From NCBI GenBank assembly GCA_964601305.1, contig CAZRMW010000006.1:1-46499 (forward strand): a stretch of DNA of 46,499 bases, read 5' to 3'. Position 1 is the stretch's first letter. Each line of letters starts with the position of its first letter. Shown here piece by piece: positions 9,641-42,048 of the stretch. The notes beneath the pieces are model-generated. The model ran no database searches. It saw only the letters and a program-made list of their open reading frames with translations, and was not told where the DNA came from. The stretch comes from an uncultured Candidatus Saccharibacteria bacterium. GTDB taxonomy: Bacteria > Patescibacteriota > Minisyncoccia > JAHISW01 > Tagabacteraceae. Position numbers and translations under genes: made by a program.

Positions 9641-9802
9641 AGTGTCCTCCTTCTTGCCCCGCCCGGCGGGGGTGAGTTTGTTGCGTTTGGTTTGTTTTTT
9701 GGTTGACCTGGTTAACATGTTTATTATATTATCAATTTGCACCTAAAAAAAGAATAGCACAAACTATTTTATATACAATAATATAAGAGAATCAAGATTT
9801 TG

Positions 9803-9874
9803 CGGTCCCACGGGGAATCGAACCCCGATTTTCAGCTTGAAAAGCTGACGTCCTGACCGTTAGACGATGGGACC
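9803..9874 (-). tRNA. tRNA-Glu (anticodon TTC).
   Basis: Cloverleaf: acceptor ggtccca/tgggacc, D-arm tcgtctaacggtcaggac, anticodon loop ttttcaa, T-arm cgggg-ttcgatt-ccccg. Confidence 0.85.
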
Positions 9875-9911
9875 CGCCTAAATTAAAGATATTGCAAATT
9901 ATAAAACAATA

Positions 9912-10253
9912 TTAGACACTTTTCAATGGTATCAACTCAAAATTAATTATTTTAACTATAGTATCTTTGTTTACTTTGTCGCCATAATAGCGCCTAAAAC
10001 TTTCATACATTTTTTCTTCACTCTTATATTTTTTGTGTCCCACAAAATCTTCATCAGTTATTTTACTAAACTTCTTTTCTCTTACATTTATTAATTCAGC
10101 TTTTGCAAATACTTCCCCTGTATTCCAATTTACAAGCTCCACCTTATCGCCAACTTGTAAATCTTTGTCGTCAAAAAGTCGCCAAGTGGTGGTCTTTTCA
10201 CCAGATAGCACAAGTGGCACAAGGTGTTTTCTAAATTTAAGTGTTTTATCCAT
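9912..10253 (-). CDS. ASCH-domain (PUA-like) protein.
   Basis: LSGEKTTTWRL, a small protein with a beta-barrel-like pattern. Assigned from memory of the family. Confidence 0.45.
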   Translation of the reverse strand: MDKTLKFRKHLVPLVLSGEKTTTWRLFDDKDLQVGDKVELVNWNTGEVFAKAELINVREKKFSKITDEDFVGHKKYKSEEKMYESFRRYYGDKVNKDTIVKIINFELIPLKSV

Positions 10254-10357
10254 ATTTTTTATTAATATGGTGAGATTTAGTACTGATTTTCACCATATTC
10301 ACCACAAAAAGGGATTTTTCTCTGGTATTTTGCCATTCTAGCAGTTATTGTAAGAAT

Positions 10358-11485
10358 ATGAAAATATTAGCCATAGAAACATCTTGCGACGAGACGGCAA
10401 TAGCAGTTTTGAAGGTGAAAAGCACGAAGGCGCCGGTTTTTTCGATTTTATCTAATATCGTTTCTTCTCAAGTGAAGCTCCACGCAAAGTGGGGTGGTGT
10501 CGTTCCAGGTTTAGCCAAGCGCGAACACACCAAAAATCTACCAAAAGTTTTAGATAAGGCACTAAAACAAGCAAAGATAAAAACCCCTGAAAAAGAAATA
10601 GATTATGTCGCCGTTACTATTGGCCCTGGACTAGAGTCAGCACTTTGGACAGGAATAAACTTTGGGAGAAATTTAGTAGAAGAGTGGAATAAGCCAATAA
10701 TTCCTGTAAACCATATGGAAGGACATTTGTTTTCTCCGTTTTTGAAAAGTGAAAATTTCAAGATTCCTAAAATTAACTTTCCAGCGATTGCACTGCTAGT
10801 AAGTGGCGGACACACGCAACTTGTGCTAATTAAAAATCTTGGAAAATACAAAATTTTAGGAGAAACTCGCGACGACGCCGCAGGAGAAGTTTTCGACAAA
10901 GTAGCCAGAATGCTAAACCTCGGCTACCCCGGCGGCCCCGCCATTTCTAAACTAACATCTAACCCCACCTCATCTGTTGGAGGTCCGACTTCCAACAGAT
11001 ACGATGTCAAGTTGCCGAGGCCAATGATAAGTGATAATTCTCCAGACGGCGAATTTGATTTTTCTTTTTCTGGTTTGAAAACCGCAGTGCTTTATAAAAT
11101 AAAGGAGTTGAAAAGTTTACCCCGCTCGGCGGGGCTTACACCAAGCATCAAAAAAGAAATCTGCCACGAATTTCAGCAATCCGTAATAGATGTTTTAATT
11201 TCTAAAGCTTTGAAGGCCACAGAAAAATACAAAGCAAAGACTGTCATACTTGGCGGGGGAGTAGTAGTAAACAAAGAGCTTAAAAAACAATTTAAAGAAA
11301 ATCTGAAAGATAAAAATATAGACTTGTTAATTCCAAATATTAAATTTTCTGGAGACAATGCAGCTATGATAGCTTTGGCTTCGTATTTCCAAAAGAAAAA
11401 GCCTGTCCGTTCGACAGGCTCCCTCCAAAAAGGCGGGCAGGCAGGACAAGCTTTGAAAGCAAATGGGAATTTGAGGATTGGTTAA
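10358..11485 (+). CDS. tsaD: tRNA N6-adenosine threonylcarbamoyltransferase TsaD (Kae1/YgjD family). It carries an in-frame GC-palindrome insertion (encoding PRSAGL) and a repeat-derived C-terminal extension.
   Basis: MKILAIETSCDETAIAVL, HMEGH and GGVVVN motifs. Confidence 0.9.
   Translation: MKILAIETSCDETAIAVLKVKSTKAPVFSILSNIVSSQVKLHAKWGGVVPGLAKREHTKNLPKVLDKALKQAKIKTPEKEIDYVAVTIGPGLESALWTGINFGRNLVEEWNKPIIPVNHMEGHLFSPFLKSENFKIPKINFPAIALLVSGGHTQLVLIKNLGKYKILGETRDDAAGEVFDKVARMLNLGYPGGPAISKLTSNPTSSVGGPTSNRYDVKLPRPMISDNSPDGEFDFSFSGLKTAVLYKIKELKSLPRSAGLTPSIKKEICHEFQQSVIDVLISKALKATEKYKAKTVILGGGVVVNKELKKQFKENLKDKNIDLLIPNIKFSGDNAAMIALASYFQKKKPVRSTGSLQKGGQAGQALKANGNLRIG
11439..11478. repeat. Direct repeat A (ggcaRgac...ctttRaaagcaaatgggaatttRag), overlapping the tsaD C-terminus and stop. 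Its partner is at 12565-12599.
   Basis: Read directly. About 32 of 35 nt are identical. Confidence 0.7.
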
Positions 11486-11775
11486 TTTATCTTTATTTCC
11501 TCTTCAAAAAACTTTATTCTTCCAGAACCAGCTTCGCATATTCCTACTTTTGTAATATCTTCAATTTCTTCCGAACACAAATTTAGATCTAAAACAATTC
11601 CATCTAAAAAACAAATAGTTCCTTTTCCTAAAATATCTGTTCCTTTCTTATTTATGGTACCAATTAGATACCCCTCCTTTTTAAAATTAATAAAAACGGT
11701 CCATTCGTTTTCAAGAGCTTTTTTAAATTTTTTTATTATTTCTTCATTTTCTTGTACAGGAAGTGAAGTTAACAT
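11482..11775 (-). CDS. Hypothetical protein, 97 aa. It is part of the cassette bracketed by direct repeats.
   Basis: ORF only. No family recognised. Confidence 0.3.
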   Translation of the reverse strand: MLTSLPVQENEEIIKKFKKALENEWTVFINFKKEGYLIGTINKKGTDILGKGTICFLDGIVLDLNLCSEEIEDITKVGICEAGSGRIKFFEEEIKIN

Positions 11776-11927
11776 TTTAAAATTCTCCTTTTTTATTTAT
11801 TTCAATATCCTCTCTGTAGTTTTAATCTAGCTAAAGTCTAAGTCAAAAACATTTTTGTATCAAGACAAAAAAGTACAAAGTACCACGACCGCTTAGTTTT
11901 GTACTTTTTTTATTTTATCAAAACTAG

Positions 11928-12266
11928 CTACTCCACTAAAGCTAAGATTTTTTCTTGAGTTTCTAAAAGAGCCTCGTCTTTTATTTTGGTAATATATTTT
12001 ACTTTTCTTGCTTGCCAATCTAAGGTTCTAAGTTGATCTGCAAGCACAAAACCTTTTATTTTTTTGTTTTCTACAGAAACCTCAAATGGGTATCCTTTTT
12101 CGTGAGAAGTAATAGGACACATTAAAGCCAGACCTGTTTTGTTGTTGTACATTTTTGGAGAAATTACCAAAGCGGGTCTTTTTCCTTTTTGTTCACGCCC
12201 ACTTTGTGGATTAAAATTTATCCAAACTAAATCTCCTCTGTCTGGAACATAGTTTTTCTTTACCAT
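11928..12266 (-). CDS. mazF: MazF/PemK-family endoribonuclease toxin.
   Basis: PDRGDLVWINFNPQSGREQKGKRPALVISP is the canonical MazF N-terminus. Confidence 0.85.
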   Translation of the reverse strand: MVKKNYVPDRGDLVWINFNPQSGREQKGKRPALVISPKMYNNKTGLALMCPITSHEKGYPFEVSVENKKIKGFVLADQLRTLDWQARKVKYITKIKDEALLETQEKILALVE

Positions 12267-12502
12267 ATTTCTTTGCCTTGTGGATTATCATCAAAAACAA
12301 GTGTTTGTTTATTCTCATTAGTAATTTGAGAGACTAAATCTTTTATACTAGTTCTACTTTTTTTTACTGGGCGAACTAACACAGCTTTATCTTTTACAGA
12401 AAGAACTACAGAGCTACCAGACTTAAAGTTTAGTTTTTTAGAAATCTCTCGAGGAATACGAACAGCCAGACTGTTTCCCCACATTTTTATTTTTGTAGTC
12501 AT
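12260..12502 (-). CDS. mazE: MazE/AbrB-like antitoxin. The start is trimmed to MTTKIKMWGNS.
   Basis: SpoVT/AbrB swapped-hairpin pattern (KMWGNSLAVRIPREI). Overlaps the mazF start. Confidence 0.7.
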   Translation of the reverse strand: MTTKIKMWGNSLAVRIPREISKKLNFKSGSSVVLSVKDKAVLVRPVKKSRTSIKDLVSQITNENKQTLVFDDNPQGKEIW

Positions 12503-12521
12503 ATATACATTGTATATACAT
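12501..12521. promoter_or_regulatory. Repeated atatacat motif / near-palindrome at the mazE start. Candidate operator and -10 region.
   Basis: atatatacattgtatatacat read directly at the ATG. Confidence 0.3.
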
Positions 12522-12564
12522 AATAATAAAAAGTCAAACAAAAAGCCTCGTCGAGATAAACTCG

Positions 12565-12599
12565 GCAAGACCTTTAAAGCAAATGGGAATTTAAGTATT
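12565..12599. repeat. Direct repeat B, the partner of 11439-11478. Together they bracket the MazEF cassette.
   Basis: Read directly. Confidence 0.7.
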
Positions 12600-12803
12600 T
12601 AATTCATCCATCACAGAATCTACTAAACTCTCTTGCTTCTCTTTAAAATCTTTTTCCAATTCTTCTGTTGTCCCACTTTCTTTTCGAACTTCTTCGTAGG
12701 TCGCAATGATTGCTTCAACATAGTTCATATGTTGCATTGGAACAAACTCTTTTTCGTATAATAAAAATTTTACTTTTTTAATAATTTCTTTTTTTATTTT
12801 CAA
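12591..12803 (-). CDS. Hypothetical acidic small protein, 70 aa.
   Basis: ORF in a two-gene overlapping operon. No family recognised. Confidence 0.3.
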   Translation of the reverse strand: MKIKKEIIKKVKFLLYEKEFVPMQHMNYVEAIIATYEEVRKESGTTEELEKDFKEKQESLVDSVMDELNT

Positions 12804-13108
12804 TGTCCCTCCTTCCCTAAATTTTCTGCTATTTTCAAAAATTCTCCAAAATGCTCAACAACCTCAAATATTTCAGGCTCCACATCTACTTCCTCTCTTT
12901 CTATTATTTCCTCCGCTAAGTCAAAAAGGGATTGTATTTCTTTTATCTCTTCTTCAATTACCTTCCTCATCACTTCCGCCACAACCCTCAAATCTTTAAT
13001 TTCAAGAGCTACAGCTTTTGAGCTAACATGCTCACAATTTTTACTTCCATCCCAAATCCTTTTCTTTACTTCCAACAAAAATTGTTCGTCGTGTTCCATT
13101 TTTCCCAA
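12800..13108 (-). CDS. Hypothetical protein, 102 aa.
   Basis: ORF whose stop overlaps the start of the downstream ORF. Confidence 0.3.
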   Translation of the reverse strand: MGKMEHDEQFLLEVKKRIWDGSKNCEHVSSKAVALEIKDLRVVAEVMRKVIEEEIKEIQSLFDLAEEIIEREEVDVEPEIFEVVEHFGEFLKIAENLGKEGH

Positions 13109-13183
13109 TCTCCTTTTAGAGTACTATAAAATATGCAATAATAGGTTTATATCTGGTTCAAAGACTAAAATAAAAATACTTTT

Positions 13184-15217: not shown

Positions 15218-15226
15218 ACTAAAGTT

Positions 15227-15928: not shown

Positions 15929-15932
15929 TTTT

Positions 15933-16457
15933 ATGTCAAAACATTCGGGTTCATTTTTTGAAAGGCTAACTGGAAACATAAACATTCACGACGAAACCGA
16001 CGATGAAGATTTTGGTGCAATAATCGAAAATGTGGACGAAGAAGAAACAGAAGAAATCATTCCAGAAAAAAAAGAGAGAAAATCAAAAAAGAAAGAAGAA
16101 AAAAGCTGGATAGAGGAAGCTAGTGAAGAAGGACAGCTTTCAGTAGATATGTTTCAAAATCCAACAGAAATTATCATAAAAGCAATGCTTGCTGGAGTAA
16201 AAGCAGAAGATCTAGATGTTTCCATAGACCAAGATGCTATAACACTACGAGGTAGTAGAAAGAGTGAAAGAGAAGTAGAAGAAGATAATTATTATTACAA
16301 AGAGCTTTATTGGGGAGATTTCTCTCGTACAATTCTTTTGCCACAAGAAGTAGATCCAGAAAATGCAGAAGCTTCTATGAAAAACGGACTCCTCGTAATA
16401 AAACTTCCAAAACTCAAAAAAGACAGAAGTCAAAAACTGAAGATAAAGGTAGAGTAG
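15933..16457 (+). CDS. Hsp20/alpha-crystallin small heat-shock protein.
   Basis: Alpha-crystallin core (DAITLRG...LLVIKLPK). Confidence 0.8.
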   Translation: MSKHSGSFFERLTGNINIHDETDDEDFGAIIENVDEEETEEIIPEKKERKSKKKEEKSWIEEASEEGQLSVDMFQNPTEIIIKAMLAGVKAEDLDVSIDQDAITLRGSRKSEREVEEDNYYYKELYWGDFSRTILLPQEVDPENAEASMKNGLLVIKLPKLKKDRSQKLKIKVE

Positions 16458-17024: not shown

Positions 17025-17062
17025 CCCCCAAGCATTGTGAATCTTTGCTTGGGGATTTTTTT
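17025..17062 (+). terminator. Rho-independent terminator.
   Basis: ccccaagca...tgcttgggg followed by a T7 run. Confidence 0.65.
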
Positions 17063-17738
17063 ATGGTAAATTATCAAATTTTGCTAGACCACGAATCCAT
17101 CCCTTCAATTTATTAACATCCTTCACTCCATTTATAGATATACGGCATGTACCAAACGGTAATGTCTTTTTTCTTCTTTTTCCTTTACTTGCAGAACTAA
17201 CCTGATAAAGAGTTTTTTCAAATATATCTTCGGGAATCGATGTAATTTTCGACCAATATTTTCTAGCCTCTTTTTCTTTTATATTAGGATGAATTTGTAT
17301 ACCAATTTTTATTCTATCTTCTTTAATTTTCATAATATCTCTAAAGAATTTCATCATTAAGATAATCATTAGGGGGTCAGAATTTACAAAAAATATTTTC
17401 CATCTATCAACCTTAGACCCTTCTGCCCAATGAAGTGCCGAGCCCACTAACAAAAGTTCTCTATCAGAAAGTTTTCCTATGTCCTTCATGGCATTTTCTT
17501 TTTCTTCTTCGGTTTGCTTTGCAATATGCTTTGCTCTCTTTTTATTATATTTTGTTATGTTTTTTGACCAAATTCTTTTATTTTTTGAGCATATATCCTT
17601 CAGAAAATCAGTGGGCCATTTTTCTCTTCTAAACCAAGAGGAAAGGGTGCTTTTTGGAACACCAAGTTTAGTAGAAATTTCGTTATAACTTTTACCAGAA
17701 AGTCTTAAAGAAATAGCTTTTTTCTTATCTTTTCGCAT
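17061..17738 (-). CDS. HTH-domain protein with a LAGLIDADG-like homing-endonuclease-like core. It is free-standing, not inside an intron.
   Basis: N-terminal SYNEISTKLGVPKSTLSSW helix-turn-helix. LLLVGSALHWAEGSK and GTCRISINGVKDV resemble LAGLIDADG half-motifs. Confidence 0.4.
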   Translation of the reverse strand: MRKDKKKAISLRLSGKSYNEISTKLGVPKSTLSSWFRREKWPTDFLKDICSKNKRIWSKNITKYNKKRAKHIAKQTEEEKENAMKDIGKLSDRELLLVGSALHWAEGSKVDRWKIFFVNSDPLMIILMMKFFRDIMKIKEDRIKIGIQIHPNIKEKEARKYWSKITSIPEDIFEKTLYQVSSASKGKRRKKTLPFGTCRISINGVKDVNKLKGWIRGLAKFDNLP

Positions 17739-21390: not shown

Positions 21391-22479
21391 TTATTTAAAA
21401 TTTCTTAATGCTAAGCCTATTGCAGTAGGGAAAGATAAAGATTCTCTGTGTTTTATTTCTGGAATATATTTATCAAACGAAAAAATATTTGTCCAAACAT
21501 TTGCAATCTCAATTGGAGTATTTAAACCATAAGACAAATATTCCACCAAACCTCTCATATTAGAATCTCCTCCACAAAGAATAATTTTTTTTATTTTTTT
21601 ATTTTTAAAACCCTGTTCATTAGAATAGCTCTCCCAATAATCCATTACTTGTTTTATTTCATCTTTTATAACAGATATCACTGGGAAAATAGCATTTAAA
21701 ACTGCGTCTCCTTCCGTCTTTTGTAAAACTGTTTGATACTTTATTTTTTCTGCTTCAAAAACACTTATATTTAGATTTTTAGAAATTGCATTATCTATAT
21801 GTCCGCCTGCCACGTTTACTGTAGAGCCAAATTTTACCACTCCGTCTTCTCCTGCCAAAAAACTTGTACGTGTTTTACCAAAATCCACCACCACAACTGC
21901 ATCTTTTTGTTTTTCATTAACTACAGATCTAAAAATCGAATGATTTTCAAGTTCAAAAACAACAGGAAAAAATCCTGCTTTCTCAAAAATTTCTAAATAG
22001 CTTTCAGTAATTTTTTTGGGAAAAGCGCTTAAAACAACTTCTAAAAATTCTCCATTACTTGCCCCGCTCGGCGGGGTTGAATTTACGACTTCAAAATCGT
22101 AAACGACATCTTCTGGAGAAAAAGGTATTAATTCTTCTAGTTGCAATTCTATACTGCTTCTAACTTTGGATAAATCCATTAAAGGAAGTTTAACAACTTT
22201 TATAAAAGCCTTTTCCTCTGGTAAAGAAGCTGCTATGTATTTATTTCCAGTTTCTTCTAAAATTATTTTTAGACTCTTAATAAGAGTTTCTTTGTCTCTT
22301 ATCTCTCCTTTTTCTATAGCGCTTTTTTCTATTTTTTTGCTTCCAAAATTTTTAAGCCTTGTTCCCCATGGACTGTTTTCTAATTCAATATATTTTATGC
22401 TTTTACCAGAAACATCCACTCCAAGAAGTGGGAGTCTTAAATAATCCGGCATAGGAAACAATTTAGAAAAACTTTTCAT
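21391..22479 (-). CDS. pilM: PilM (actin-like type IV pilus assembly ATPase). The start is trimmed to MKSFSK at 22479. It carries an in-frame GC-palindrome insertion (encoding PPSGAS).
   Basis: LLGVDVSGKSIKYIEL and an actin/FtsA fold pattern. A TATAAT box lies 6 nt before the ATG. Confidence 0.75.
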   Translation of the reverse strand: MKSFSKLFPMPDYLRLPLLGVDVSGKSIKYIELENSPWGTRLKNFGSKKIEKSAIEKGEIRDKETLIKSLKIILEETGNKYIAASLPEEKAFIKVVKLPLMDLSKVRSSIELQLEELIPFSPEDVVYDFEVVNSTPPSGASNGEFLEVVLSAFPKKITESYLEIFEKAGFFPVVFELENHSIFRSVVNEKQKDAVVVVDFGKTRTSFLAGEDGVVKFGSTVNVAGGHIDNAISKNLNISVFEAEKIKYQTVLQKTEGDAVLNAIFPVISVIKDEIKQVMDYWESYSNEQGFKNKKIKKIILCGGDSNMRGLVEYLSYGLNTPIEIANVWTNIFSFDKYIPEIKHRESLSFPTAIGLALRNFK

Positions 22480-22544
22480 ACTATTATTATACAACAATAA
22501 TGACCACCCTTGAATAAAAAACACTCTTTGTTATATTTAATAAT

Positions 22545-22946: not shown

Positions 22947-22951
22947 AAAAA

Positions 22952-23029
22952 GCCTTCATAGCTCAATTGCCCCGCCGAGCGGGGTAAAGTAGAGCAGCTT
23001 GCCCCGCTCGGCGGGGCGACCTCTTAAGC
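22952..23029 (+). pseudogene. Orphan 5' half of tRNA-Lys (positions 1 to about 38, up to the anticodon loop). It is split by two copies of the GC-rich palindromic repeat.
   Basis: gccttcatagctcaattg + [ccccgccgagcggggtaaa] + gtagagcagct + [tgccccgctcggcggggcga] + cctcttaag. The intact tRNA-Lys at 23277 reads gcctccatagctcaattggtagagcagctccctcttaagg. Outside the inserts there is one mismatch. Confidence 0.8.
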
Positions 23030-23032
23030 AAA

Positions 23033-23272
23033 ATGTATTACACATATATAATAAAAAGCATCGAACACAAATCTTTTTATGTAGGGATAACAAATAATCC
23101 AGAAAAAAGACTGAGAGAACACAATTCTGGCAAGGTTGAGAGTACCAGAACAAAGAAACCTTGGATATTATGGCACATTAGAAAATCAAAAAATTCAAAA
23201 GAAGCGAGAAAAGAAGAAATTTATTTAAAAAAGAAAGACAAAGAGTTCAAAGAAAAATTAAAAAATATTTAA
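23033..23272 (+). CDS. GIY-YIG nuclease-domain protein, paralogous to the one at 176..433.
   Basis: MYYTYIIKSIEHKSFYVGITNNPEKRLREHNSG. Its ATG lies 3 nt after the end of the tRNA-Lys fragment. Confidence 0.8.
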   Translation: MYYTYIIKSIEHKSFYVGITNNPEKRLREHNSGKVESTRTKKPWILWHIRKSKNSKEARKEEIYLKKKDKEFKEKLKNI

Positions 23273-23276
23273 ACAT

Positions 23277-23349
23277 GCCTCCATAGCTCAATTGGTAGAG
23301 CAGCTCCCTCTTAAGGAGTTGGTTCCAGGTTCGAGTCCTGGTGGGGGTA
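23277..23349 (+). tRNA. tRNA-Lys (anticodon CTT).
   Basis: Acceptor gcctcca/tgggggt (two G-U pairs), D-arm agctcaattggtagagc, anticodon loop ctcttaa, T-arm ccagg-ttcgagt-cctgg. Confidence 0.85.
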
Positions 23350-23351
23350 CA

Positions 23352-23551
23352 AAACAGTTTGGCCCCGATGCGTGGCATTGGGGTTTTACTGTTTTGCAGT
23401 TTCAACAGGACGAGAACCGAGGGCTGGCGAAGCGAGCTCCGATGTTACATCGGAGCGACAGCCCGAGTGGGGGTCGAGGGAGTGAGATATTTTTGGAATG
23501 TAATGAACAAAAATATCCACGAGAGTGACCGAGTCCTGGTGGGGGGTACAC
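23352..23551 (+). other. GC-rich structured segment of about 180 nt. It ends in a 21-nt direct repeat of the tRNA-Lys 3' end (cgagtcctggtggggggtaca). Candidate att-site scar and/or small ncRNA.
   Basis: Nested stems read directly, including gctccgatg/catcggagc, gggctg/cagccc and ggcccc/ggggtt. The repeat copies are at 23332-23351 and 23531-23551. Confidence 0.5.
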
Positions 23552-23671
23552 TTCAAATTTTAGCTTGTCAAAACACTTGACCTGCTTTTTTGTATATGTT
23601 AAAAATACCTAGACTAGAAACTTAACCCGTTCGCCTTAGGCGAACAGAACCTTGAAAAGGAGACTGTTGTT

Positions 23672-25868: not shown

Positions 25869-26378
25869 ATGAAAAAAGAAATATTTTTAATACTCCACAA
25901 TATACGAAGCTTGCACAATGTAGGCTCTATTTTTAGAACTGCCGATGGGGCAGGGGTGAGTAAAATATATCTTACCGGATACACGCCAGCACCAATAGAC
26001 ATTTTTGGAAAAACCAGAAAAGAAATCGCCAAAACCGCGCTCGGCGCAGAAAACACAGTTCCTTGGGAAAAACACAGAAATTTAAGTCAATTAATCAAAA
26101 AACTTAAAAATGATCGAAGTCCAACTTCAATCATTGGAGTAGAGCAAGATGAAAAAGCAATAGATTATAGGGAATTTACTCGGTCATCCAGTCATTCGAC
26201 CGGACGAAGTTCCGACCGGGCAGCAAGCTTCGCTTTTGTTTTAGGCAATGAAGTCCGTGGGCTTTCCAAACAGACACTCAAAAAGTGCGACAAAATAATA
26301 GAAATCCCTATGCACGGCAAAAAAGAATCTCTCAACGTCGCCGTCACAGCAGGAATAGTTTTATTTCATATTATCTAA
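25869..26378 (+). CDS. SpoU/TrmH-family RNA 2'-O-methyltransferase. It carries an in-frame GC-rich repeat insertion encoding RSSSHSTGRSSDRAAS.
   Basis: C-terminal VLGNEVRGLS...IPMHGKKESLNVAVTAGIVLF is the SpoU knot motif. Confidence 0.8.
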   Translation: MKKEIFLILHNIRSLHNVGSIFRTADGAGVSKIYLTGYTPAPIDIFGKTRKEIAKTALGAENTVPWEKHRNLSQLIKKLKNDRSPTSIIGVEQDEKAIDYREFTRSSSHSTGRSSDRAASFAFVLGNEVRGLSKQTLKKCDKIIEIPMHGKKESLNVAVTAGIVLFHII

Positions 26379-26604
26379 ATTTATTTTCTCTAACTTTTCA
26401 CAAGGTACAAAAATATGCGGTTCCGCCCAAGGCGGACAAGCGCGTGTTTTGTACTTTTTATAGTTTTTTTATTTATTCCATACCCAAAAATAAAGTCAAT
26501 ATTGAGTAAATTTCTCAAAACTGCTCTACTAAAATAAATAAACTCGCCAAAGGCGAGTGAACTTTAACAAACAGCCTCGCCAAGCGGGGTAAAGAGGAGG
26601 CAAA

Positions 26605-27798
26605 ATGATAAAATCATTTTTCTGGAGCAAAAAATGGGCTCTCTGGGCCTGGGGAGGAGCCATCTTCCTTTTAGTTTCTCTATATTTACAAGTGCAAATG
26701 ACTGTAATGTTTAATGAATGGTATAAGGGTTTTTACGACATACTACAAGGATCAGACAATGGCAAGTATGTATTAAGTGATTTTTGGTCAGCAATAATTG
26801 CATGGTGCCATATAGCCTATAAATACATTCTTCTGTCAGCATTTACTGCATATTTCACTCGGCTTTATGCTTTTACTTGGCGAGAAGCAATGACCTTTAA
26901 CTATCTTCCAAGATGGAGATATGTGGAAGAACAAATAGAAGGTGCTGCCCAGCGTATTCAGCAAGACACCGAAAGATTTGCTAGAATTGTGGAAACTTTA
27001 GGTTTGCAAATAGTACGCGCAACAATGACACTCATTGCTTTCCTGCCAATCTTATGGAACTACAGCAACAAAGTGGAGGCAGATTATATTACTCATGTTC
27101 CTGAAATTCCTATATGGATACTCGGTATCCTTTGCTTGTTTTTTCTTTTTGTTTTAAGCAAAACAAGTAAAAATCTACCTCAACATTTAAAAGATCTTAA
27201 AACTACTCTTATTATTCTGCTAAAATCCCCTGTCACTCAAATACTGCTATTTATATTTATGCTCATTTGGATAGGACTCAATGCTGGTTCTTTTGTTGAA
27301 GGGTCTTTGGTTTGGGTGTCACTAATAGTTAGTGTCGGGGGTATGTATCTTTCGTGGATTATTGGATACTATCTACCCAAATTAGAGTACAATAATCAGG
27401 TTGTGGAAGCTGCTTATCGACAGAATTTAGAACTCGTTTCTACAAACAAAGCTCCTTACATTTTTTCAAAGTTTGTTGAATTATTTACTGGAGTCAGAAT
27501 TAATTATCGCAGACTTTATTTGCATTATGGATATTTTGACTTATGGGTATACAGCTATGATGTAGGAATGAGCCTTGTGCCTTTCCTGGTAATGGCTCCA
27601 GGATTATTTACCGGAATGATTTCTCTAGGAATGCTGATGCAAATATCGAATGCTTTCAATAAAGTCCATGCTGGCTTTTCATTGTTCATCCACAGATGGA
27701 CCACCATCACTGAACTAAGAAGTATCTGGAAACGACTTCACGAATTTGAAGCAAATTTGGATAAATACCAACCAAAAGAAGAGTCAACTCAAAAATAA
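26605..27798 (+). CDS. SbmA/BacA-family inner-membrane transporter.
   Basis: EGAAQRIQQDTERFARIVETLGLQIVRATMTLIAFLPIL closely parallels the E. coli SbmA core. Confidence 0.7.
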   Translation: MIKSFFWSKKWALWAWGGAIFLLVSLYLQVQMTVMFNEWYKGFYDILQGSDNGKYVLSDFWSAIIAWCHIAYKYILLSAFTAYFTRLYAFTWREAMTFNYLPRWRYVEEQIEGAAQRIQQDTERFARIVETLGLQIVRATMTLIAFLPILWNYSNKVEADYITHVPEIPIWILGILCLFFLFVLSKTSKNLPQHLKDLKTTLIILLKSPVTQILLFIFMLIWIGLNAGSFVEGSLVWVSLIVSVGGMYLSWIIGYYLPKLEYNNQVVEAAYRQNLELVSTNKAPYIFSKFVELFTGVRINYRRLYLHYGYFDLWVYSYDVGMSLVPFLVMAPGLFTGMISLGMLMQISNAFNKVHAGFSLFIHRWTTITELRSIWKRLHEFEANLDKYQPKEESTQK

Positions 27799-30116: not shown

Positions 30117-30554
30117 CTATTTTTTTATTTCTATATTTTTAGGCCGCACACCAAGCTTCACTTTTAAATTTATTTTTTCACCATCTCTAAAGATAGTTAG
30201 TTCAACAATATCTCCTGGTTTGATATTATTCTTTTTAAAAACTTTTTTTAAGTTTGTTTCTGGTTTAAGGCCAAATTCATCCCAATCACTTCCAATAAAA
30301 ATACCATAAATTATATCCCCTCGTTTCAAACCAGCCTTCTCAGCAGCAGATCCTTTTACGACACTCTTAACATAAGGCCTTGAACTATATTCAACCCCCA
30401 AAAAGGCTTTTGGAGAAGTTATTTCTTTTTCTGAAAAATAATAACGCGGAATACCGAAAATAACAAAAAATACTATAACTAAAAGTAAGCAAAACAAAAT
30501 TATTTTTCCAGCAGAGGACATTCCTTCAAACTTTGTTGTCATTTTTTCCTCCAA
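30117..30554 (-). CDS. PDZ-domain membrane protein.
   Basis: N-terminal TM helix plus a PDZ domain (GLKRGDIIYGI...GDIVELTIFRDGEKINLKVKLG). Confidence 0.6.
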   Translation of the reverse strand: MEEKMTTKFEGMSSAGKIILFCLLLVIVFFVIFGIPRYYFSEKEITSPKAFLGVEYSSRPYVKSVVKGSAAEKAGLKRGDIIYGIFIGSDWDEFGLKPETNLKKVFKKNNIKPGDIVELTIFRDGEKINLKVKLGVRPKNIEIKK

Positions 30555-30649
30555 GTTTAGTGTTTAGTTTTCAACTTGTCCCGCTCGGCGGGAATTTAAT
30601 GTTATAAAAGCATTTTTGTGATACTTCGTCAAATTGTTTCATTTGTAAA

Positions 30650-35095: not shown

Positions 35096-35149
35096 TATAG
35101 TATCAGCAATAAAAAAAAAATCAAGTTTTTTTTGGATAATTATATCTTT

Positions 35150-35857: not shown

Positions 35858-35950
35858 AATAATTTCTAATTGCTCTAATTGACCTAATTGCTCTAAAAAT
35901 TTAAAAATTGGTGTTTGGGATTTATTTAGGTTAATTAGAAATTAGATTAA

Positions 35951-38302
35951 TTAGGTTAATTTTCTAAGCGTGCCCCAATTTTTACCAACTAGCACATCTA
36001 CCTCGGTAGTTACTTTTGGTAACACATCTTTTTCCATAGCACTTTCTATAATCGGCACCACTTTTTCTACTATATCATCTTTAATTTCAAAAATTAATTC
36101 ATCATGTACCTGCAAAAGTAGTTTTGCATCACTTTCTAATTTTTTTTCTTTCAAAATCTTGTCTACATCTACCATCGCCACTTTTATAATATCTGCTGCA
36201 GTGCCTTGAATGGGAGCATTTATTGCCATCCTCTCCGCCTCTTTACGAATATACTCAATGGGGGAGCTGGCCTCCGGCAAATACCTTCTTCTTCCAAGAA
36301 GAGTTTCGCTATAACCCTTTTTCCTAACGCTACTCTTTGTGCTTTCCATATATTCTGTTATACCCGGAAAATCATGGAAATATTCATCGTAAAATTTTTG
36401 TGCTTCCTCTTTAGTGCACTCCAAGTTTTTCTTTAGACTATTTATTCCCATACCATAAGCTATGCCGAAGTTTATTATTTTTGCTCGGCGACGCATTTCT
36501 TTTGTTACATCTTCTGGTTTTACATTAAAAACTTCCGAAGCCACTTTTGCATGAATATCTGCTTTGTTTTTAAAAGCGCTTATCAATTTTTTATCTTGGC
36601 TTAAAGACGCCACTATACGAAGCTCTATTTGAGAATAATCAAAAGACACCAAACTCCAACCCCTTGGAGCCACAAAAGCCTTTCTTACTGCGCGCCCGAA
36701 CTCTGTTCGAGTAGGAATATTTTGTAAATTTGGATCTGAAGAAGAAAGCCTACCAGTTGCAGTACCTGTTTGATTAAAAGTAGTGTGCAAACGCCCATCT
36801 TCGCCAACCATACCAGGCAGATTATCTACATATGTAGAAGTGAGCTTAGCAAGCTCACGGTAAGAAAATATTTCTTTTATTATTTCGTGCCTATCTTGTA
36901 TTTTTTCGAGTTCTGAAAATCGAGTGGATATTGCACCTGTACCAGTTTTTCTCATTCCTTTGGGAGAAATTTCTAATTTTTTAAAAAGTACTTCTGATAA
37001 TTGCTTTGGAGATCTTATGTTAAACTCGCCACCGGCTAATTTCCAAATTTTGTTTTGCAAACTGTCTAATTTTTTGTGATACTCTTTGCTTAAATTTTTT
37101 AGAAAATCTACATCTAGTAAAATCCCTTTATCTTGCATACCTTCTAAAATTTTTATTAAAGGAAGCTCTACATCTTCGTATAATTTATTTAATTTATCTT
37201 TTTTAAGTTTATCTAAAATTTTTTCTTTGGCTGTCTCTAAAGATTTTACTCTCATTTCAGACAAGATGTCATTTGTGGAAGGATTTGTTTTTCTAGAGTC
37301 TAGAAGCCAGAAAGCTAACTTTGTTTCATGTTCGACATTGGATGTCGAACAAATGCTAGTTTGGGATATTTTTACATCTCCCGCTGGAATTACTACTTTA
37401 TTTATCAAACTTCTAAATCCATGCTCCATTAAAAAATCTTTTAACTTTTCACTAGAAAAATCTGCATTCCACCTGCTATCTTCTAAAGAAAAATCTACTG
37501 GAATATCTCTTTTGGAAAGTGCTAGTGCCTTACTAAAAAGAGCTTCTTTTTTGTTTTCTTTCAGTAAATTTATTATTCTTGGCTTTATACCAGCTTTTAT
37601 AAATTCTTCTTCACCCTTGTCTAGTTTTTTATAAATATCTTCAAGTGATCCAAGTTTTGAAATTAAAGTTTTAGCTGTTTTTTCCCCAATACCCACCACA
37701 CCAATTATATTATCTGAAGGATCTCCCATAAGCCCCTTGAAGTCGGGGACTAGTTCCGGACCAAACCCATATCTATCTATTACTGCTTTTTCATCATAGA
37801 AAACAGAATCTTTTATACCACGCTTCATTGTATAAATTCTCACACCTAGGCGAATAAGTTGAAGGGTGTCTAAATCTCCAGTAACTACTATTATTTCTAA
37901 ATCTTCTTGCCCCGCTCGGCGGGGTTTTAATTTTTCTACAATAGTCGCCAAAACATCATCTGCTTCAAATCCTTCATGTTCATAGATTGGTACATCTAAA
38001 AGTTCAAGTGCCTCTTTGGCTCTTTCTATTTGTGAACTTAATTCATCGGCCATTTTAGGTCTTTTTGCTTTGTAGGCTTTATAAATTTCGTGCCTAAAAG
38101 TAGGTTTTGGTAAATCAAAACAAGCTGCGATATAGTCTGGCTTAAAATCGTTTATTGTTTTTAAAACTGTTACCAAAAATCCATATAGCGCGCCCGTGGG
38201 CTCTCCTTTTGGGGAAGTGAACCCTGGCATAGCATGAAAAGCGCGGTGCAAAACCGCATGAGAATCTAGTAAAACCAATCTTTTTTTCTTTTTTTCTGCC
38301 AT
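35951..38302 (-). CDS. polA: DNA polymerase I (5'-3' exonuclease plus polymerase domains). It carries an in-frame GC-palindrome insertion encoding PRRAGQ.
   Basis: Motif A DYSQIELRIVA, motif C QVHDELIFE, and an N-terminal FEN-like domain. Confidence 0.9.
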   Translation of the reverse strand: MAEKKKKRLVLLDSHAVLHRAFHAMPGFTSPKGEPTGALYGFLVTVLKTINDFKPDYIAACFDLPKPTFRHEIYKAYKAKRPKMADELSSQIERAKEALELLDVPIYEHEGFEADDVLATIVEKLKPRRAGQEDLEIIVVTGDLDTLQLIRLGVRIYTMKRGIKDSVFYDEKAVIDRYGFGPELVPDFKGLMGDPSDNIIGVVGIGEKTAKTLISKLGSLEDIYKKLDKGEEEFIKAGIKPRIINLLKENKKEALFSKALALSKRDIPVDFSLEDSRWNADFSSEKLKDFLMEHGFRSLINKVVIPAGDVKISQTSICSTSNVEHETKLAFWLLDSRKTNPSTNDILSEMRVKSLETAKEKILDKLKKDKLNKLYEDVELPLIKILEGMQDKGILLDVDFLKNLSKEYHKKLDSLQNKIWKLAGGEFNIRSPKQLSEVLFKKLEISPKGMRKTGTGAISTRFSELEKIQDRHEIIKEIFSYRELAKLTSTYVDNLPGMVGEDGRLHTTFNQTGTATGRLSSSDPNLQNIPTRTEFGRAVRKAFVAPRGWSLVSFDYSQIELRIVASLSQDKKLISAFKNKADIHAKVASEVFNVKPEDVTKEMRRRAKIINFGIAYGMGINSLKKNLECTKEEAQKFYDEYFHDFPGITEYMESTKSSVRKKGYSETLLGRRRYLPEASSPIEYIRKEAERMAINAPIQGTAADIIKVAMVDVDKILKEKKLESDAKLLLQVHDELIFEIKDDIVEKVVPIIESAMEKDVLPKVTTEVDVLVGKNWGTLRKLT
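37906..37926. repeat. GC-rich palindromic element cttgccccgctcggcggggtt, in-frame inside polA. Other copies are at 9654, 11119, 22058, 22970, 23000, 30575 and 40383, with a degenerate copy at 26576.
   Basis: Read directly. A 6-bp GC stem (ccccgc/gcgggg) with a 4-nt centre. Confidence 0.8.
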
Positions 38303-38309
38303 TAATTTT

Positions 38310-38331
38310 AGTATACACCATAGTGTATACT
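38310..38331. promoter_or_regulatory. Perfect palindrome agtatacac-cata-gtgtatact, 8-30 nt upstream of the polA ATG.
   Basis: Read directly. It overlaps a TATACT -10-like box. Confidence 0.4.
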
Positions 38332-38466
38332 ACTAAAAATTAAATCCTATTCTTGCTATTTGGCACGATCGTTGATTTTTGCAAGAATAGGAAAATGGGG
38401 TAAGTTACTAAAACAAAAAAGCAGGCCATTTCTGGACTGCTTTTTGAAGTTCGACTATTTTATACT

Positions 38467-38691
38467 TTATACTTTTTCAATAATCAAGAGATTAACATGT
38501 GGAGAGGGAAGTTTTTTCCCACTCCCACTTACAACATCTCTTTTTTCTGCTCTGACAAACACCTCTTGTCCATCTTCTTTAATCCCCAATGTGTCTTCAA
38601 CAAAAGCAGTGTCTTGAATATTTTCCAAAACAATTTTTAGTCTAGCTCTTTCAATTTCAATCTTCATATCCTTCTCCTTTTTAAGATTCAT
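38467..38691 (-). CDS. Hypothetical protein, 74 aa.
   Basis: ORF in an operon with tsaE. Confidence 0.35.
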   Translation of the reverse strand: MNLKKEKDMKIEIERARLKIVLENIQDTAFVEDTLGIKEDGQEVFVRAEKRDVVSGSGKKLPSPHVNLLIIEKV

Positions 38692-38708
38692 TTAAATCAA
38701 AGATATCT

Positions 38709-39188
38709 TTACTTAAAACAAATGTCAACAACACGCTCCTTTTCGGATTTATGTCCAAACTTTATCCAAATTGTGTTTTTGGGAAGAGTCTTTTTTACTT
38801 TTTCTGGCCATTCTATTAAAATTATATTTTTTGGATCTTCTATTAATTCTTTCCAGCCCAATTCTAATAAATCTTTTTCGCCCTCAAGTCGATAACTATC
38901 GATATGTGCCATCAATTTGTAATTTGTAGTTTGTGGTTTGTAGTTCTTCATAATAGTGAAAGTAGGGCTTGTGATTTTTTCTTTAATTCCTAGTGCTTTT
39001 GCAAAACCTTGGGTAAAAGTAGTTTTACCTGCGCCTAAATCTCCTTGCAACGCTACCACAACTGCATTAACCGACATACGATGTCGGTTCTCTTGGTTCT
39101 TTAAAATTTTTTTTGCCAAACCTTCTGCTAATTTATGAGTTTGGCTAATTGACTTTGAAATAGTTCTCATTTCTAAATCTAACCACAA
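38709..39188 (-). CDS. tsaE: tRNA threonylcarbamoyladenosine biosynthesis ATPase TsaE.
   Basis: ALQGDLGAGKTTFTQGFAKALGI...SPTFT is the TsaE/YjeE signature. Confidence 0.85.
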   Translation of the reverse strand: MWLDLEMRTISKSISQTHKLAEGLAKKILKNQENRHRMSVNAVVVALQGDLGAGKTTFTQGFAKALGIKEKITSPTFTIMKNYKPQTTNYKLMAHIDSYRLEGEKDLLELGWKELIEDPKNIILIEWPEKVKKTLPKNTIWIKFGHKSEKERVVDICFK

Positions 39189-39245
39189 CTTTCATACCCA
39201 ATCAATATTGATAGATAATTTTCAAAATGCTAACAAGAAGATAAT

Positions 39246-40334
39246 ATGTCATCAGCAATAGACAAAATTAAATCTCTAATAGAAGATTCTCAAAGTTTTG
39301 CCATACTTTCTGACAAAAATCCCGAAAACTTTGAATTCCTAGCAAAAGAAGCTCTAAAAACAACCATAAACAAAAAAAATATTCCTATTATTGAACTACC
39401 TCAAACACATGAGGATTTAAAAAACGAGTGGTCTGATATTATTTCTAAAGAGACATTAACAAAATTTCCTAAAAAGACCGTTGTAAAATTACCCAAAGAA
39501 AAATATAAAGTAAAAGAAGTTTCTTACAAAGACGATCCGGAAAATGTTTCTTTTTTAATAACTTCCGAAAACAATACTATAGAGAAAGAGGATGTTTCTT
39601 TAGAAGAAATGCTTCCTTGTCCAGATGTTGTTTTTTGTTTTTTTGAAAACAAAAATAAAATAGAAAATTTTAAAAATTCTTTAGAGTTACTAAATCGAGA
39701 AAAAATAGTTTTTATAACACAAGAGGGAAGAACAACTACCGAAAAAATTTTTGATATTTTAAAAATTATAAACTCAAATATTTTAGATGAAAAAAATGTT
39801 GTAAATTTACTACTAGCATCTTTAATTACCGAAACAAATAATTTTTCAAACAAAAAGACAAAAGAAACTTTGTCTCTGGGAAGTACCCTTTTAGAAAACG
39901 GGGGTAATCAAGAAAACATCTTAAAAATAATAGAAAAAAAAGAAAAAGGACTATTTTTTACTCAAATTTTAGGCAGAGCTTTGGCTAGAACTTACGTAGA
40001 TGACGAACTAAAAACTTCGTGGAGTTTTTTAAATAGTCGCGATTTACAAAAAACAAACAATAGCAATATTTCTATAAAAAATTTATACAAACTTACAAAA
40101 AAAATAGGTCAATCTATAAAAAAACAAAATTTAAACATACTTTGCTGGCAAACCGAAGAGGGAATAAAATCTATAATCTCTGCTGGACTAGGAAAAGGAG
40201 AAAACTATTTATTACCACTAGCTCACCAAATGAATGCAAAAATTGAAAGCAGGTTTTTTGTAATAGGACCTTTTAAAAATTTTTCAGAGTCAGAAATATA
40301 TCTAAAAAACACCTTAAAAGATATTAGTTTGTAG
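39246..40334 (+). CDS. Hypothetical protein, 362 aa.
   Basis: ORF only. Confidence 0.35.
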   Translation: MSSAIDKIKSLIEDSQSFAILSDKNPENFEFLAKEALKTTINKKNIPIIELPQTHEDLKNEWSDIISKETLTKFPKKTVVKLPKEKYKVKEVSYKDDPENVSFLITSENNTIEKEDVSLEEMLPCPDVVFCFFENKNKIENFKNSLELLNREKIVFITQEGRTTTEKIFDILKIINSNILDEKNVVNLLLASLITETNNFSNKKTKETLSLGSTLLENGGNQENILKIIEKKEKGLFFTQILGRALARTYVDDELKTSWSFLNSRDLQKTNNSNISIKNLYKLTKKIGQSIKKQNLNILCWQTEEGIKSIISAGLGKGENYLLPLAHQMNAKIESRFFVIGPFKNFSESEIYLKNTLKDISL

Positions 40335-40362
40335 TGTTGTTGTGGTATAATTAAAGAAAAAC

Positions 40363-42048
40363 ATGACATTAAGAAAAAACATTCCCGCCGAGCGGGACAA
40401 GCAAGAAGAAAAAATACAAATCCTTAAAAGAAAGGAAGAGGAAGATGTTACCCAAATTTTGTCTCAAAAATACGGTATTTCTTATGTAGATCTAAGAAAA
40501 ATGTCTGTAGATTTAGATTATTTAAAACTGATACCAGAAAATAAAGCACGAGAAGGTAAAATTGTAGTGTTTCAAGGTGTAGGCAAAAAAGCACAAATTG
40601 CGGTACAAAATCCAGAACTAGAATCAACAAAAAATATTATAAAAGAACTTTCTCAAGAGGAATACATTCCCCAATTATTTTTATCTTCTCTTTCTGGTCT
40701 CTCAGAGGTTTGGGAAAAATACAAAGAAGTACCTAAATTTGTTGAACTTTCAAAAGGTACTGTAGAAATTTCTTCGGAAAAAATATCAGAGCTTTTGGAA
40801 CAAGATTTTACTGTAGAACACTTGAAAACAATGTTTTTAGAAAACATACAAAGTAAAAAAGAAAGAAGTGTTTCAGATCTTATAGAAATAATTCTTGGGG
40901 GAGCTCTTAAAATGAAGGCTTCAGATGTTCATATTGAACCATTTGAAGATAATGTAAAATTAAGGTTCCGTTTTGATGGAGTGCTTCATGATATTTTGGA
41001 TTTTAAGCTTAAATCTTATAAACTTTTAATTTCTAGGATCAAATTAGTTTCAGAAATGAAATTGAATATAAAACAAAAAGCTCAAGATGGAAGATTTTCT
41101 ATAAAAATAAACGACACTGAAATAGAGGTGAGGTCTTCTATTTTACCTGGGCCATATGGAGAATCAGTGGTTTTAAGAATTCTAAATCCAGAAACAATAG
41201 ATGTAAAATTTGAAAATCTTGGACTGCAAAAAAATCTAGAAGAAATACTTGAAAAAGAAATTAAAAAACCAAACGGTATGATTTTAACAACAGGGCCTAC
41301 TGGATCTGGAAAAACAACCACACTATATACTTTTCTAAAAAAAATAAATAACCCAGAAATAAAAATAATAACAATTGAAGAACCTATAGAATATCATCTT
41401 GAAGGAATTACCCAAACACAAACCAAACCAGAAAAGAATTATACTTTTTCTACTGGTCTTCGAGCAATTGTAAGACAAGACCCAGATGTAATAATGATAG
41501 GTGAAATAAGAGACAAAGAAACTGCTGACACATCCTTAAACGCTGCTCTTACTGGACACCTTGTGTTGTCTACTCTTCATACAAATGATGCTGCCGGCAC
41601 AATCCCACGCTTAATAGAATTAGGTGCTAAAACAGCCGTTATTGCTCCTTCTATAAATATTACCTTAGCACAAAGACTTATAAGAAAGCTTTGTAGTAAT
41701 TGTAAAGTAGCTTATTCACCAACACCAGAGGAAAAAGAAATTTTGGAAAAATTTATAAACACTCTTCCTGAAAGTATAGAAAAACCAAATTTAAAAAACA
41801 TTAAATTATATAAAGCAAACCAGTGCGAAAAATGTAGAAACACAGGGTATAACGGAAGAATAGGTATATTTGAGGCTATTATAGTAGACGAAGAAATGGA
41901 AAAACTTATCCTAAATAACCCATCAACTGTTGAAATAAAAGAAACTGCAAAATCCCAAGGTATTATAGATATACAGCAAGATGCAATTTTAAAAATAATT
42001 GAAGGAATTACTTCTATCGACGAAGTAAAAAGAGTTATTGAAATATAA
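40363..42048 (+). CDS. pilB: Type II/IV secretion ATPase (PilB/GspE family). It carries a GC-palindrome insertion at codons 7-13 (encoding IPAERDK).
   Basis: Walker A GPTGSGKTTTLY, Asp box, His box, and a C-terminal CxxC...CxxC. Confidence 0.85.
   Translation: MTLRKNIPAERDKQEEKIQILKRKEEEDVTQILSQKYGISYVDLRKMSVDLDYLKLIPENKAREGKIVVFQGVGKKAQIAVQNPELESTKNIIKELSQEEYIPQLFLSSLSGLSEVWEKYKEVPKFVELSKGTVEISSEKISELLEQDFTVEHLKTMFLENIQSKKERSVSDLIEIILGGALKMKASDVHIEPFEDNVKLRFRFDGVLHDILDFKLKSYKLLISRIKLVSEMKLNIKQKAQDGRFSIKINDTEIEVRSSILPGPYGESVVLRILNPETIDVKFENLGLQKNLEEILEKEIKKPNGMILTTGPTGSGKTTTLYTFLKKINNPEIKIITIEEPIEYHLEGITQTQTKPEKNYTFSTGLRAIVRQDPDVIMIGEIRDKETADTSLNAALTGHLVLSTLHTNDAAGTIPRLIELGAKTAVIAPSINITLAQRLIRKLCSNCKVAYSPTPEEKEILEKFINTLPESIEKPNLKNIKLYKANQCEKCRNTGYNGRIGIFEAIIVDEEMEKLILNNPSTVEIKETAKSQGIIDIQQDAILKIIEGITSIDEVKRVIEI

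Follow-up and report, generated by a model that had tools for sequence, protein, structure and literature searches.

Patescibacteria account for a large share of bacterial diversity and have tiny, gene-dense genomes. A stretch of 46,499 nucleotides (nt) from an uncultured Candidatus Saccharibacteria bacterium (contig CAZRMW010000006.1, positions 1 to 46,499, hereafter the window) raises the question how one short GC-rich palindrome comes to stand in several unrelated genes, in protein-coding sequence as well as in leaders and in a partial tRNA gene. The proteins of the window have their best matches in genomes of Patescibacteria (Candidate Phyla Radiation). Here we show that the palindrome belongs to a 19-nt unit which, as judged from sequence comparison, arrives as a discrete block without target-site duplication. 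It multiplied in the source genome to at least nine copies in 46 kb, and the surviving copies stand at low-harm sites, namely in 5' leaders, in a tRNA pseudo-fragment and in variable loops of proteins, where the net length is a multiple of three. We regard it as likely that the unit is a mobile, selfish hairpin element. Our preferred reading, which we hold to be probable with some reserve, is that the copies form a family of hairpin insertion elements, ultra-short, GC-rich and non-autonomous, with a GIY-YIG nuclease of the window as the best candidate for the mobiliser. A literature search found no published description of such elements in Patescibacteria.

The 19-nucleotide hairpin unit in the window

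A preliminary description of the window had reported at least nine copies of a palindrome with a 4-nt centre in a genome of 30% GC. The copy number was confirmed, whereas the loop measures 3 nt and the base composition of the window is 34% GC. Exact copies of CCCCGCYSRGCGGGG occur six times, at 9657, 11120, 22062, 22970, 23002 and 37910, as compared to none in 100 dinucleotide-preserving shuffles of the window. A scan for perfect GC hairpins revealed two variants with an outer-pair change on both sides (TCCCGC..GCGGGA, at 30579 and 40383), and a scan with one mismatch allowed revealed one degenerate copy (CCTCGCCAAGCGGGG followed by TAAA, at 26575). The main family thus comprises at least nine copies, about one per 5 kb (Table 1). 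When all GC-rich hairpins of this geometry (6-bp stem, 3-nt loop) were counted and up to one mismatch was allowed, 16 were found versus 0.74 expected from Markov shuffles. The extremely GC-rich 15-mers of the window are mostly explained by the hairpin elements.

Set in one orientation, the main-family copies share a hairpin of 15 nt with a 6-bp stem and a 3-nt loop (CCCCGC-CGA-GCGGGG). The loop is CGA except for CGG once and CAA in the degenerate copy. Six copies have CAAG as the adjoining tail, the other three TAAA. Because this 4-nt tail is copied together with the hairpin, the conserved unit is counted as 19 nt, a 15-nt perfect hairpin plus tail, for which single-stranded DNA folding of -6 to -7 kcal/mol is predicted. 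Three subfamilies can be distinguished: CAAG tail with C-G outer pair, CAAG tail with T-A outer pair, and TAAA tail. The diagnostic changes are common to the members of a subfamily, and this is the pattern expected from copying of a few master copies. Seven of 11 hairpins lie in the non-genic 20% of the window (p = 0.002), and four of the nine main-family copies lie within open reading frames (ORFs).

Table 1. Hairpin copies, host genes and cassette parts of the window, with cassettes and double hairpins of other genomes. L-numbers denote other loci or contigs compared with the window.
Feature	Positions	Strand	Sequence or property	Context
Element copy	9653..9671	+	CTTG+CCCCGCCCGGCGGGG, loop variant CCG	M16/PreP peptidase leader
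Element copy	11116..11134	+	TTTA+CCCCGCTCGGCGGGG	inside tsaD
Element copy	22058..22076	+	CTTG+CCCCGCTCGGCGGGG	inside pilM
Element copy	22970..22988	-	CCCCGCCGAGCGGGG+TAAA	D-loop of tRNA-Lys 5' fragment
Element copy	22998..23016	+	CTTG+CCCCGCTCGGCGGGG	anticodon stem of tRNA-Lys 5' fragment
Second-family hairpin	26422..26440	-	TCCGCCCAAGGCGGA+CAAG	spoU-sbmA spacer
Element copy	26575..26593	-	CCTCGCCAAGCGGGG+TAAA, degenerate, one stem mismatch	sbmA leader
Element copy	30575..30593	+	CTTG+TCCCGCTCGGCGGGA, T-A outer-pair subfamily	PDZ-domain gene leader
Element copy	37906..37924	+	CTTG+CCCCGCTCGGCGGGG	inside polA
Element copy	40383..40401	-	TCCCGCCGAGCGGGA+CAAG, T-A subfamily	codons 7-13 of pilB
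tsaD	10358-11485	+	insert encodes LPRSAG	
pilM	21391-22524	-	insert encodes TPPSGAS	
PDZ-domain gene	30117-30554	-		element copy in leader
polA	35951-38302	-	insert encodes KPRRAGQ	loop of 5'-nuclease domain
pilB	40363-42048	+	insert encodes IPAERDK	residues 7-13
tRNA-Lys 5' fragment	22951..23031	+	acceptor stem to anticodon loop	holds two element copies
GIY-YIG nuclease gene	23033..23272	+	79 amino acids, Pfam GIY-YIG E = 4e-10	intact ORF
Intact tRNA-Lys(CTT)	23277..23350	+		empty-site reference for the two fragment copies
Cassette, L118-L121			GIY-YIG 73% identical, 30% GC	different neighbouring genes
Cassette, L122			GIY-YIG 71% identical, 43.5% GC	
Cassette, L123			GIY-YIG 63% identical (tblastn), 29% GC	
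Double hairpin, L090	8776-8805			
Double hairpins, L108	9434-9463, 12478-12507			
Double hairpins, L109	830-859, 1168-1197, 1261-1291			
Double hairpin, L110	2033-2062			
Double hairpin, L118	8916-8945			

Copies in protein genes and leaders

With host genes assigned by Pfam, every context named in the preliminary description (tsaD, polA, pilM, pilB, the leaders of the peptidase, PDZ-domain and sbmA genes, and the tRNA-Lys fragment with two copies) proved correct. So did its statement that copies are inserted in frame into conserved proteins, for the orthologues aligned with TsaD, PilM and PolA are devoid of the additional residues. In an alignment of 30 sequences, TsaD of the window exceeds the 29 homologues by six residues, which fall exactly at the element, and its nearest orthologues run through. 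An AlphaFold model (mean pLDDT 82.6) places the insert in a predicted coil (253-261) between helices 238-252 and 262-290, in line with the suggestion that such inserts are tolerated in protein loops; in solved TsaD structures this site is either gapped or occupied by a short loop of another kind. In PolA, Taq polymerase aligns with a gap of five residues opposite the element. The insert peptide is found in 0 of 120 homologues, and the loop has eight residues in the window versus three to four in the homologues. PilM of the syntenic L090 is five residues shorter at the element site. In pilB, where the copy is followed by a second CAAG, there is no alternative start codon between the element and the beginning of the conserved sequence. 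According to these alignments, the hairpin units in tsaD, polA and pilM are insertions and native sequence is excluded. Net gains are estimated at 15-18 nt in ORFs, where loop alignments are ambiguous by one residue, and at 19 nt in tRNA fragments. Two observations concern these genes otherwise. PolA of the window (783 amino acids) comprises 5'-nuclease and polymerase domains, Pfam gave no match to a 3'-5' exonuclease domain, and among solved structures Taq polymerase is the best match. A gene pair for a MazF/PemK toxin and a MazE antitoxin (11928-12568) follows tsaD immediately downstream.

The same family is found at different sites in relatives. The syntenic L089, whose TsaD is 65% identical (BLASTP), contains the identical 19-mer at another tsaD site (LIK[TPPSGA]SWGKYK). 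The two sites are reciprocal: L089 is devoid of the insert of the window, and the window is devoid of that of L089. In this single case the element abuts native GGGGCAAGT, resulting in a 9-nt direct repeat which hints at microhomology. The repeat is an argument for microhomology-guided, local snap-back (template-switch) repair at each site. Together with native sequence and chance GC palindromes, such an origin is barely conceivable for the family: zero copies are expected by chance, orthologues are devoid of the residues, and local templating cannot account for one and the same 19-mer at sites and in genomes that are unrelated. Chance or native origin is thus refuted as a general explanation. 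As a separate observation, the tsaD 3' end of L089 (at least 32 nt, with a GGCCTGC..GCAGGCC hairpin) is duplicated (11064-11095 and 12034-12065). The duplicates flank a metallo-beta-lactamase-fold gene with a Pfam match to Anti-Pycsar Apyc1, which suggests from the sequence that this gene was inserted at the tsaD end.

A scan of 185,579 species genomes for the 19-mer yielded mostly chance matches in high-GC genomes and 11 low-GC loci with one copy each. These belong mostly to Patescibacteria lineages (Saccharibacteria, Tagabacteria, Parcubacteria and others). Most of their 19-mers lie inside unrelated ORFs, e.g. trpS and iscU, and four of the six possible frames are used. Among viral sequences, there was one match, in a viral contig of 71% GC, which we take as chance. 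Five further assemblies of the same clone (L091, L114-L117) are 99.9-100% identical and contain the same copies, which rules out an assembly artefact. Strain-level empty sites were not found, as the closest TsaD and PolA relatives are 65-67% identical and near-identical contigs carry the same copies. The preliminary description had called the element active or recently active. Recent activity is plausible because the copies are near-identical; against it stand the lack of polymorphism in the five assemblies and the copies in tRNA fragments, which are old, since they are common to diverged genomes.

Several copies stand in leaders, just 5' of a Shine-Dalgarno sequence, namely those of the M16, sbmA and PDZ genes in the window and one in L031. 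The M16 copy precedes the Shine-Dalgarno sequence AAGGAGG by 4 nt and the ATG at 9640 by 16 nt; the gene is on the minus strand and its start was fixed by alignment with the syntenic L089 orthologue. The sbmA copy directly precedes the Shine-Dalgarno sequence GAGGAGG and the ATG at 26605. Such positions would suit functional host signals, i.e. mRNA 5' stabilisers, translation modulators, weak or antisense terminators, or protein-binding or DNA-uptake sites. A terminator-like hairpin followed by a T-run in L022, the type IV pilus machinery encoded in the genome and the hairpin structure kept in the tRNA-Lys cassettes of diverged genomes (see below) point in the same direction. Still, we hold this explanation to be improbable, as four copies interrupt conserved enzymes, where such a signal is not needed, and the sites differ between relatives. 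Intrinsic terminators consist of a GC hairpin and a following T-run on the transcribed strand; here a T-rich tail is present on either strand in only 2-3 of 8 copies, and that of polA is on the antisense strand. Nor is there a significant bias in the strand of the copies relative to the host gene (12 one way, 5 the other, tallied over the window and other loci). DNA uptake sequences occur about once per kb and arise by substitution within existing sequence. The hairpin family has a density of about one per 5 kb, and comparison with orthologues and intact tRNA shows inserted 19-nt blocks, which uptake or binding sites, arising by point mutation, would not form.

The tRNA-Lys/GIY-YIG cassette and candidate mobilisers

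Two copies of the element belong to a composite cassette (22951-23553) which escaped the preliminary description, as did the wider spread of such hairpins in Patescibacteria. It consists of a tRNA-Lys 5' fragment ending 2 nt before the start codon of a GIY-YIG nuclease gene, this gene, an intact tRNA-Lys, a GC-rich and strongly structured spacer (about 190 nt, RNA folding z-score -6.1) and a repeated tRNA 3' end. An Rfam scan of the window gave only tRNAs above thresholds, and the cassette region had no meaningful match even when a permissive threshold was applied. The fragment was aligned nucleotide by nucleotide with the intact tRNA-Lys, which lies 250 nt downstream. Relative to this gene, the copy in the D-loop is an insertion of exactly 19 nt, and the anticodon-stem copy adds net 19 nt. 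The two copies are mutually inverted and are predicted to be able to pair into a 17-bp stem.

A protein search with the GIY-YIG nuclease of the window retrieved ten relatives only. Homologous cassettes were obtained from three other genomes (L118-L121, L122 and L123), whose contigs were retrieved by GIY-YIG protein similarity alone, without reference to hairpins. All three share the architecture of tRNA-Lys 5' fragment, GIY-YIG gene and intact tRNA-Lys, although the genes around it differ, and all three contain a perfect 6-bp GC hairpin at the D-loop position of the window. Across genomes the loops of these D-loop hairpins are CGA, CCG, CAG and CTA, and the stem is unchanged except in L123, where both sides are changed (TCCCGC/GCGGGA). 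L118 and L123 have a second copy in common, an exact 19-nt insertion of TTTA plus hairpin between GTTAG and CTCAG, again with a both-sided stem change between the two genomes. Clean 19-nt insertions relative to intact tRNA-Lys are thus present in the fragments of the window, L118 and L123, and no target-site duplication, as would flank terminal inverted repeats, was seen at any of them. In every one of these genomes the fragment agrees with the resident tRNA in its acceptor-stem part, and its hairpin-bearing D-loop part is conserved between cassettes. Such a mosaic is what recombination-based homing into tRNA-Lys genes would leave. The composite cassette has the look of a mobile element with tRNA-Lys genes as targets, to which it would bring a tRNA as replacement. 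Within about 27 kb of the L118-L120 genome only two main-family hairpins occur, those beside the GIY-YIG gene. The dispersed copies of the window have mostly the CGA loop, as has the cassette copy of the window.

The 19-nt unit encodes nothing, therefore something else in the cell must copy it. That the stem is conserved across diverged genomes while the loops are free argues for recognition by a protein. We propose that a trans-acting protein recognises the stem sequence, that slightly imprecise junctions (net gains of 15-19 nt) would leave only some events in frame, and that purifying selection would remove other insertions. The trans-acting protein may be the GIY-YIG nuclease, which would then relate to the hairpins like the transposase RAYT (REP-associated tyrosine transposase) to repetitive extragenic palindromes (REPs). 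What makes it the best candidate is that resident copies flank its gene in all cases. The evidence for this assignment is correlative, and we propose the 79-residue protein as mobiliser tentatively, as a possibility that has more against it than for it. Free-standing GIY-YIG homing endonuclease genes are found near tRNA genes, e.g. SegB in the tRNA cluster of phage T4. Like these, the cassette combines a small GIY-YIG gene at a tRNA gene with a partial tRNA duplication; its protein differs from the SegB type in having 79 residues only, i.e. the catalytic domain and no obvious DNA-binding domain.

REPs are 20-40 nt long, imperfect and extragenic, and their enzyme is a Y1 HUH transposase. The window family recalls REPs and REPINs by its GC-rich hairpin with an adjacent conserved stretch of 4 nt, and the likeness extends to inverted pairs forming a longer hairpin and to resident copies flanking the gene of the presumed mobilising enzyme. 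Differences concern the tail, CAAG or TAAA instead of the REP tetranucleotide GTAG, the hairpin, which is a perfect 15-mer, the location, with four of nine main-family copies in ORFs, and the neighbouring gene, which encodes a GIY-YIG nuclease instead of a Y1 HUH protein. The hairpins might also be REP-like or like insertion sequences IS200/IS605, mobilised as single-stranded DNA by a Y1 HUH transposase (RAYT/TnpA) encoded elsewhere, with the tail acting like the REP tetranucleotide or a guide sequence. The stability of the hairpin with a conserved tetranucleotide at its foot, the REPIN-like long hairpin formed by the inverted copies in the tRNA fragment and insertion without target duplication are consistent with this. 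Pfam scans of window ORFs with a minimum of 100 amino acids detected no Y1 transposase, and tblastn searches for Y1 in 278 kb of low-GC, mostly Patescibacteria DNA gave no significant match (best E-value 0.065). Since REPs also differ in size and location and the tail is inserted together with the hairpin instead of being a pre-existing target, we judge a Y1-driven element decidedly improbable.

It is very improbable that the hairpins are footprints of excision, or solo terminal repeats, left by a larger DNA transposon with CCCCGC ends. The palindromic form would fit a left end joined to a right end, and a TTG triplet stands on both sides in five of about 21 tallied sites. A footprint should be variable in sequence, yet loop and tail are constant within subfamilies, and no longer element bounded by CCCCGC ends was found in the window or in related loci. 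The triplets were rejected as a target-site duplication, because the search pattern itself required CTTG on the left, and no duplication accompanies the insertions in the clean tRNA comparisons. Pfam scans of 46 window ORFs detected no transposase or insertion sequence, only a weak helix-turn-helix protein (17061-17738).

Several points weigh against mobile hairpin elements moved by the GIY-YIG nuclease. Neither a transposition event nor presence/absence polymorphism was observed in the five further assemblies of the clone. The net gain within an ORF must be 15 or 18 nt and the clean unit has 19 nt; imprecise junctions are therefore required, and are assumed here. The three leader copies just before Shine-Dalgarno sequences could mean a regulatory role. 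The GIY-YIG link is correlative, coming from one cassette type in four genomes, and the conserved cassette hairpins could serve the expression of the cassette itself, not mobility. Most 19-mer loci of other genomes are without a GIY-YIG gene within the 2-8 kb examined, and distant GIY-YIG relatives in viral contigs are without such hairpins. Finally, the 19-mer is rare in metagenomes of the Joint Genome Institute (14 stretches, the low-GC ones mostly repeating known sites); the genome of the window is therefore unusually rich in the main family.

Further GIY-YIG genes and tRNA neighbours were noted. A second paralogue in the window (36% identical, about 176-430) lies right after tRNA-Gly(TCC) and is preceded by a degenerate tRNA-Gly 5' fragment (about 121-150); window positions 1-430 contain no GC hairpins. 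In the metagenome-assembled Saccharibacteria locus L067, the exact 19-mer directly abuts the 5' end of a tRNA-Pro (6165-6258). About 1.3 kb from the 19-mer follow a tRNA-Gly 5' fragment whose anticodon loop holds a GC-rich insertion of about 63 nt, a GIY-YIG gene and an intact tRNA-Gly (7440-7890). Proximity to tRNA genes is not general among dispersed 19-mer copies, only the L067 copy abutting one.

Related hairpins in Patescibacteria and known repeat families

TsaD homologues of other Patescibacteria contain short insertions rich in Pro, Gly, Ala and Arg at various positions, with a hot spot that follows the SGGHT strand (window residues about 149-165). At this turn, different insertions encoded by GC hairpins are present in at least nine of 120 homologues; the cause could be target preference or structural tolerance. 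In six such tsaD genes the DNA was inspected and the insertions are GC hairpins. A 30-nt double hairpin, TCCGCC-NNN-GGCGGA-CCAGCC-NNN-GGCTGG, encodes SAxGGPAxGW and is present in frame in genes of several Patescibacteria (Table 1), with three copies in a single tsaD gene of L109. Its loops are variable and its stems show both-sided changes; the 100% pairing is partly circular, because the copies were selected as perfect hairpins. The window hairpin at 26422 is a member of this second family, its stem being that of the first hairpin of the double elements. Double hairpins with the same TTT/AAA-type flanks are also present in three IMG/VR contigs classed as viral (L111-L113, about 53% GC).

The preliminary description had compared the family to Rickettsia palindromic elements, which are about 100-150 bp long and lie in frame in protein genes (PMC10969869). 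As an analogy this holds. Both are palindromic repeats of a reduced AT-rich genome, stand in frame in unrelated housekeeping genes (tsaD, polA, pilM and pilB, and elsewhere trpS and iscU) and add peptide segments that the host proteins tolerate. The comparison fails in size, 19 nt as compared to about 150 bp. Moreover, Rickettsia palindromic elements encode their own conserved peptide, whereas the window unit adds 5-6 residues, has no sequence relation to them and occurs in a different phylum. Size and the conserved peptide led us to reject membership.

Mitochondrial GC clusters are a second point of comparison. In these, variation falls mainly in the loops and the stems are preserved, subfamilies merge and are shuffled, and a helper role has been proposed for endonucleases encoded in introns (PMC4478555; see also PMC2800124). 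Like the yeast GC42 clusters and mitochondrial double-hairpin elements, the window family consists of short GC-rich hairpins scattered in an AT-rich genome, with variable loops and conserved or compensated stems, and the 30-nt double hairpins of Patescibacteria resemble the mitochondrial double-hairpin elements. GC clusters are organellar, mostly intergenic, at least 30-45 nt long and have a putative AG target duplication. The window family by contrast resides in a bacterial chromosome, with no duplication seen and many copies inside essential genes. With a Patescibacteria chromosome as host and no homology to known clusters, membership was rejected here as well and the likeness is one of analogy. 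The window family is a member of neither group, as size, host, duplication and sequence relation differ.

A phylum-wide class of hairpins, single with 15-19 nt or double with 30 nt and with compensated stems, which would colonise essential genes in frame and of which the window family is paired with a tRNA-Lys-targeting mini GIY-YIG cassette, appears rather unlikely at present. If true, it would be a two-component selfish system like REP/RAYT, with GIY-YIG instead of an HUH transposase, and the smallest mobile unit so far described in bacteria. The element itself, if confirmed, would be shorter than any repeated insertion element so far known to lie in frame in housekeeping genes of bacteria, and it would be the first such system described in Patescibacteria. 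It would further explain many odd loop insertions rich in Pro, Gly, Ala and Arg in proteins of this phylum, which affect alignment, phylogeny and structure prediction. Hairpin elements are also ready strain markers, and the GIY-YIG/tRNA-Lys pairing offers a concrete candidate for the mover of miniature hairpin repeats, a question common to mitochondrial GC clusters.

Some GC-rich sequences of the spoU-sbmA region stand apart from the copies described. A further related hairpin lies at window position 26543. Within spoU (25869-26378), CCGCGCTCGGCGCAG (26035-26049) has the TCG loop as in the main family and one mismatch. Both sides of its stem show a swap, at positions 3 and 13. It may be a copy that diverged long ago; in the L090 orthologue the protein length at this site is equal. 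At 26170-26225, spoU contains a GC-rich insertion of 12 residues (SSSHSTGRSSDR) relative to the L090 orthologue. With internal CGGTC/GACCG repeats and GCAGCAAGC at its end, this insertion is outside the hairpin family.

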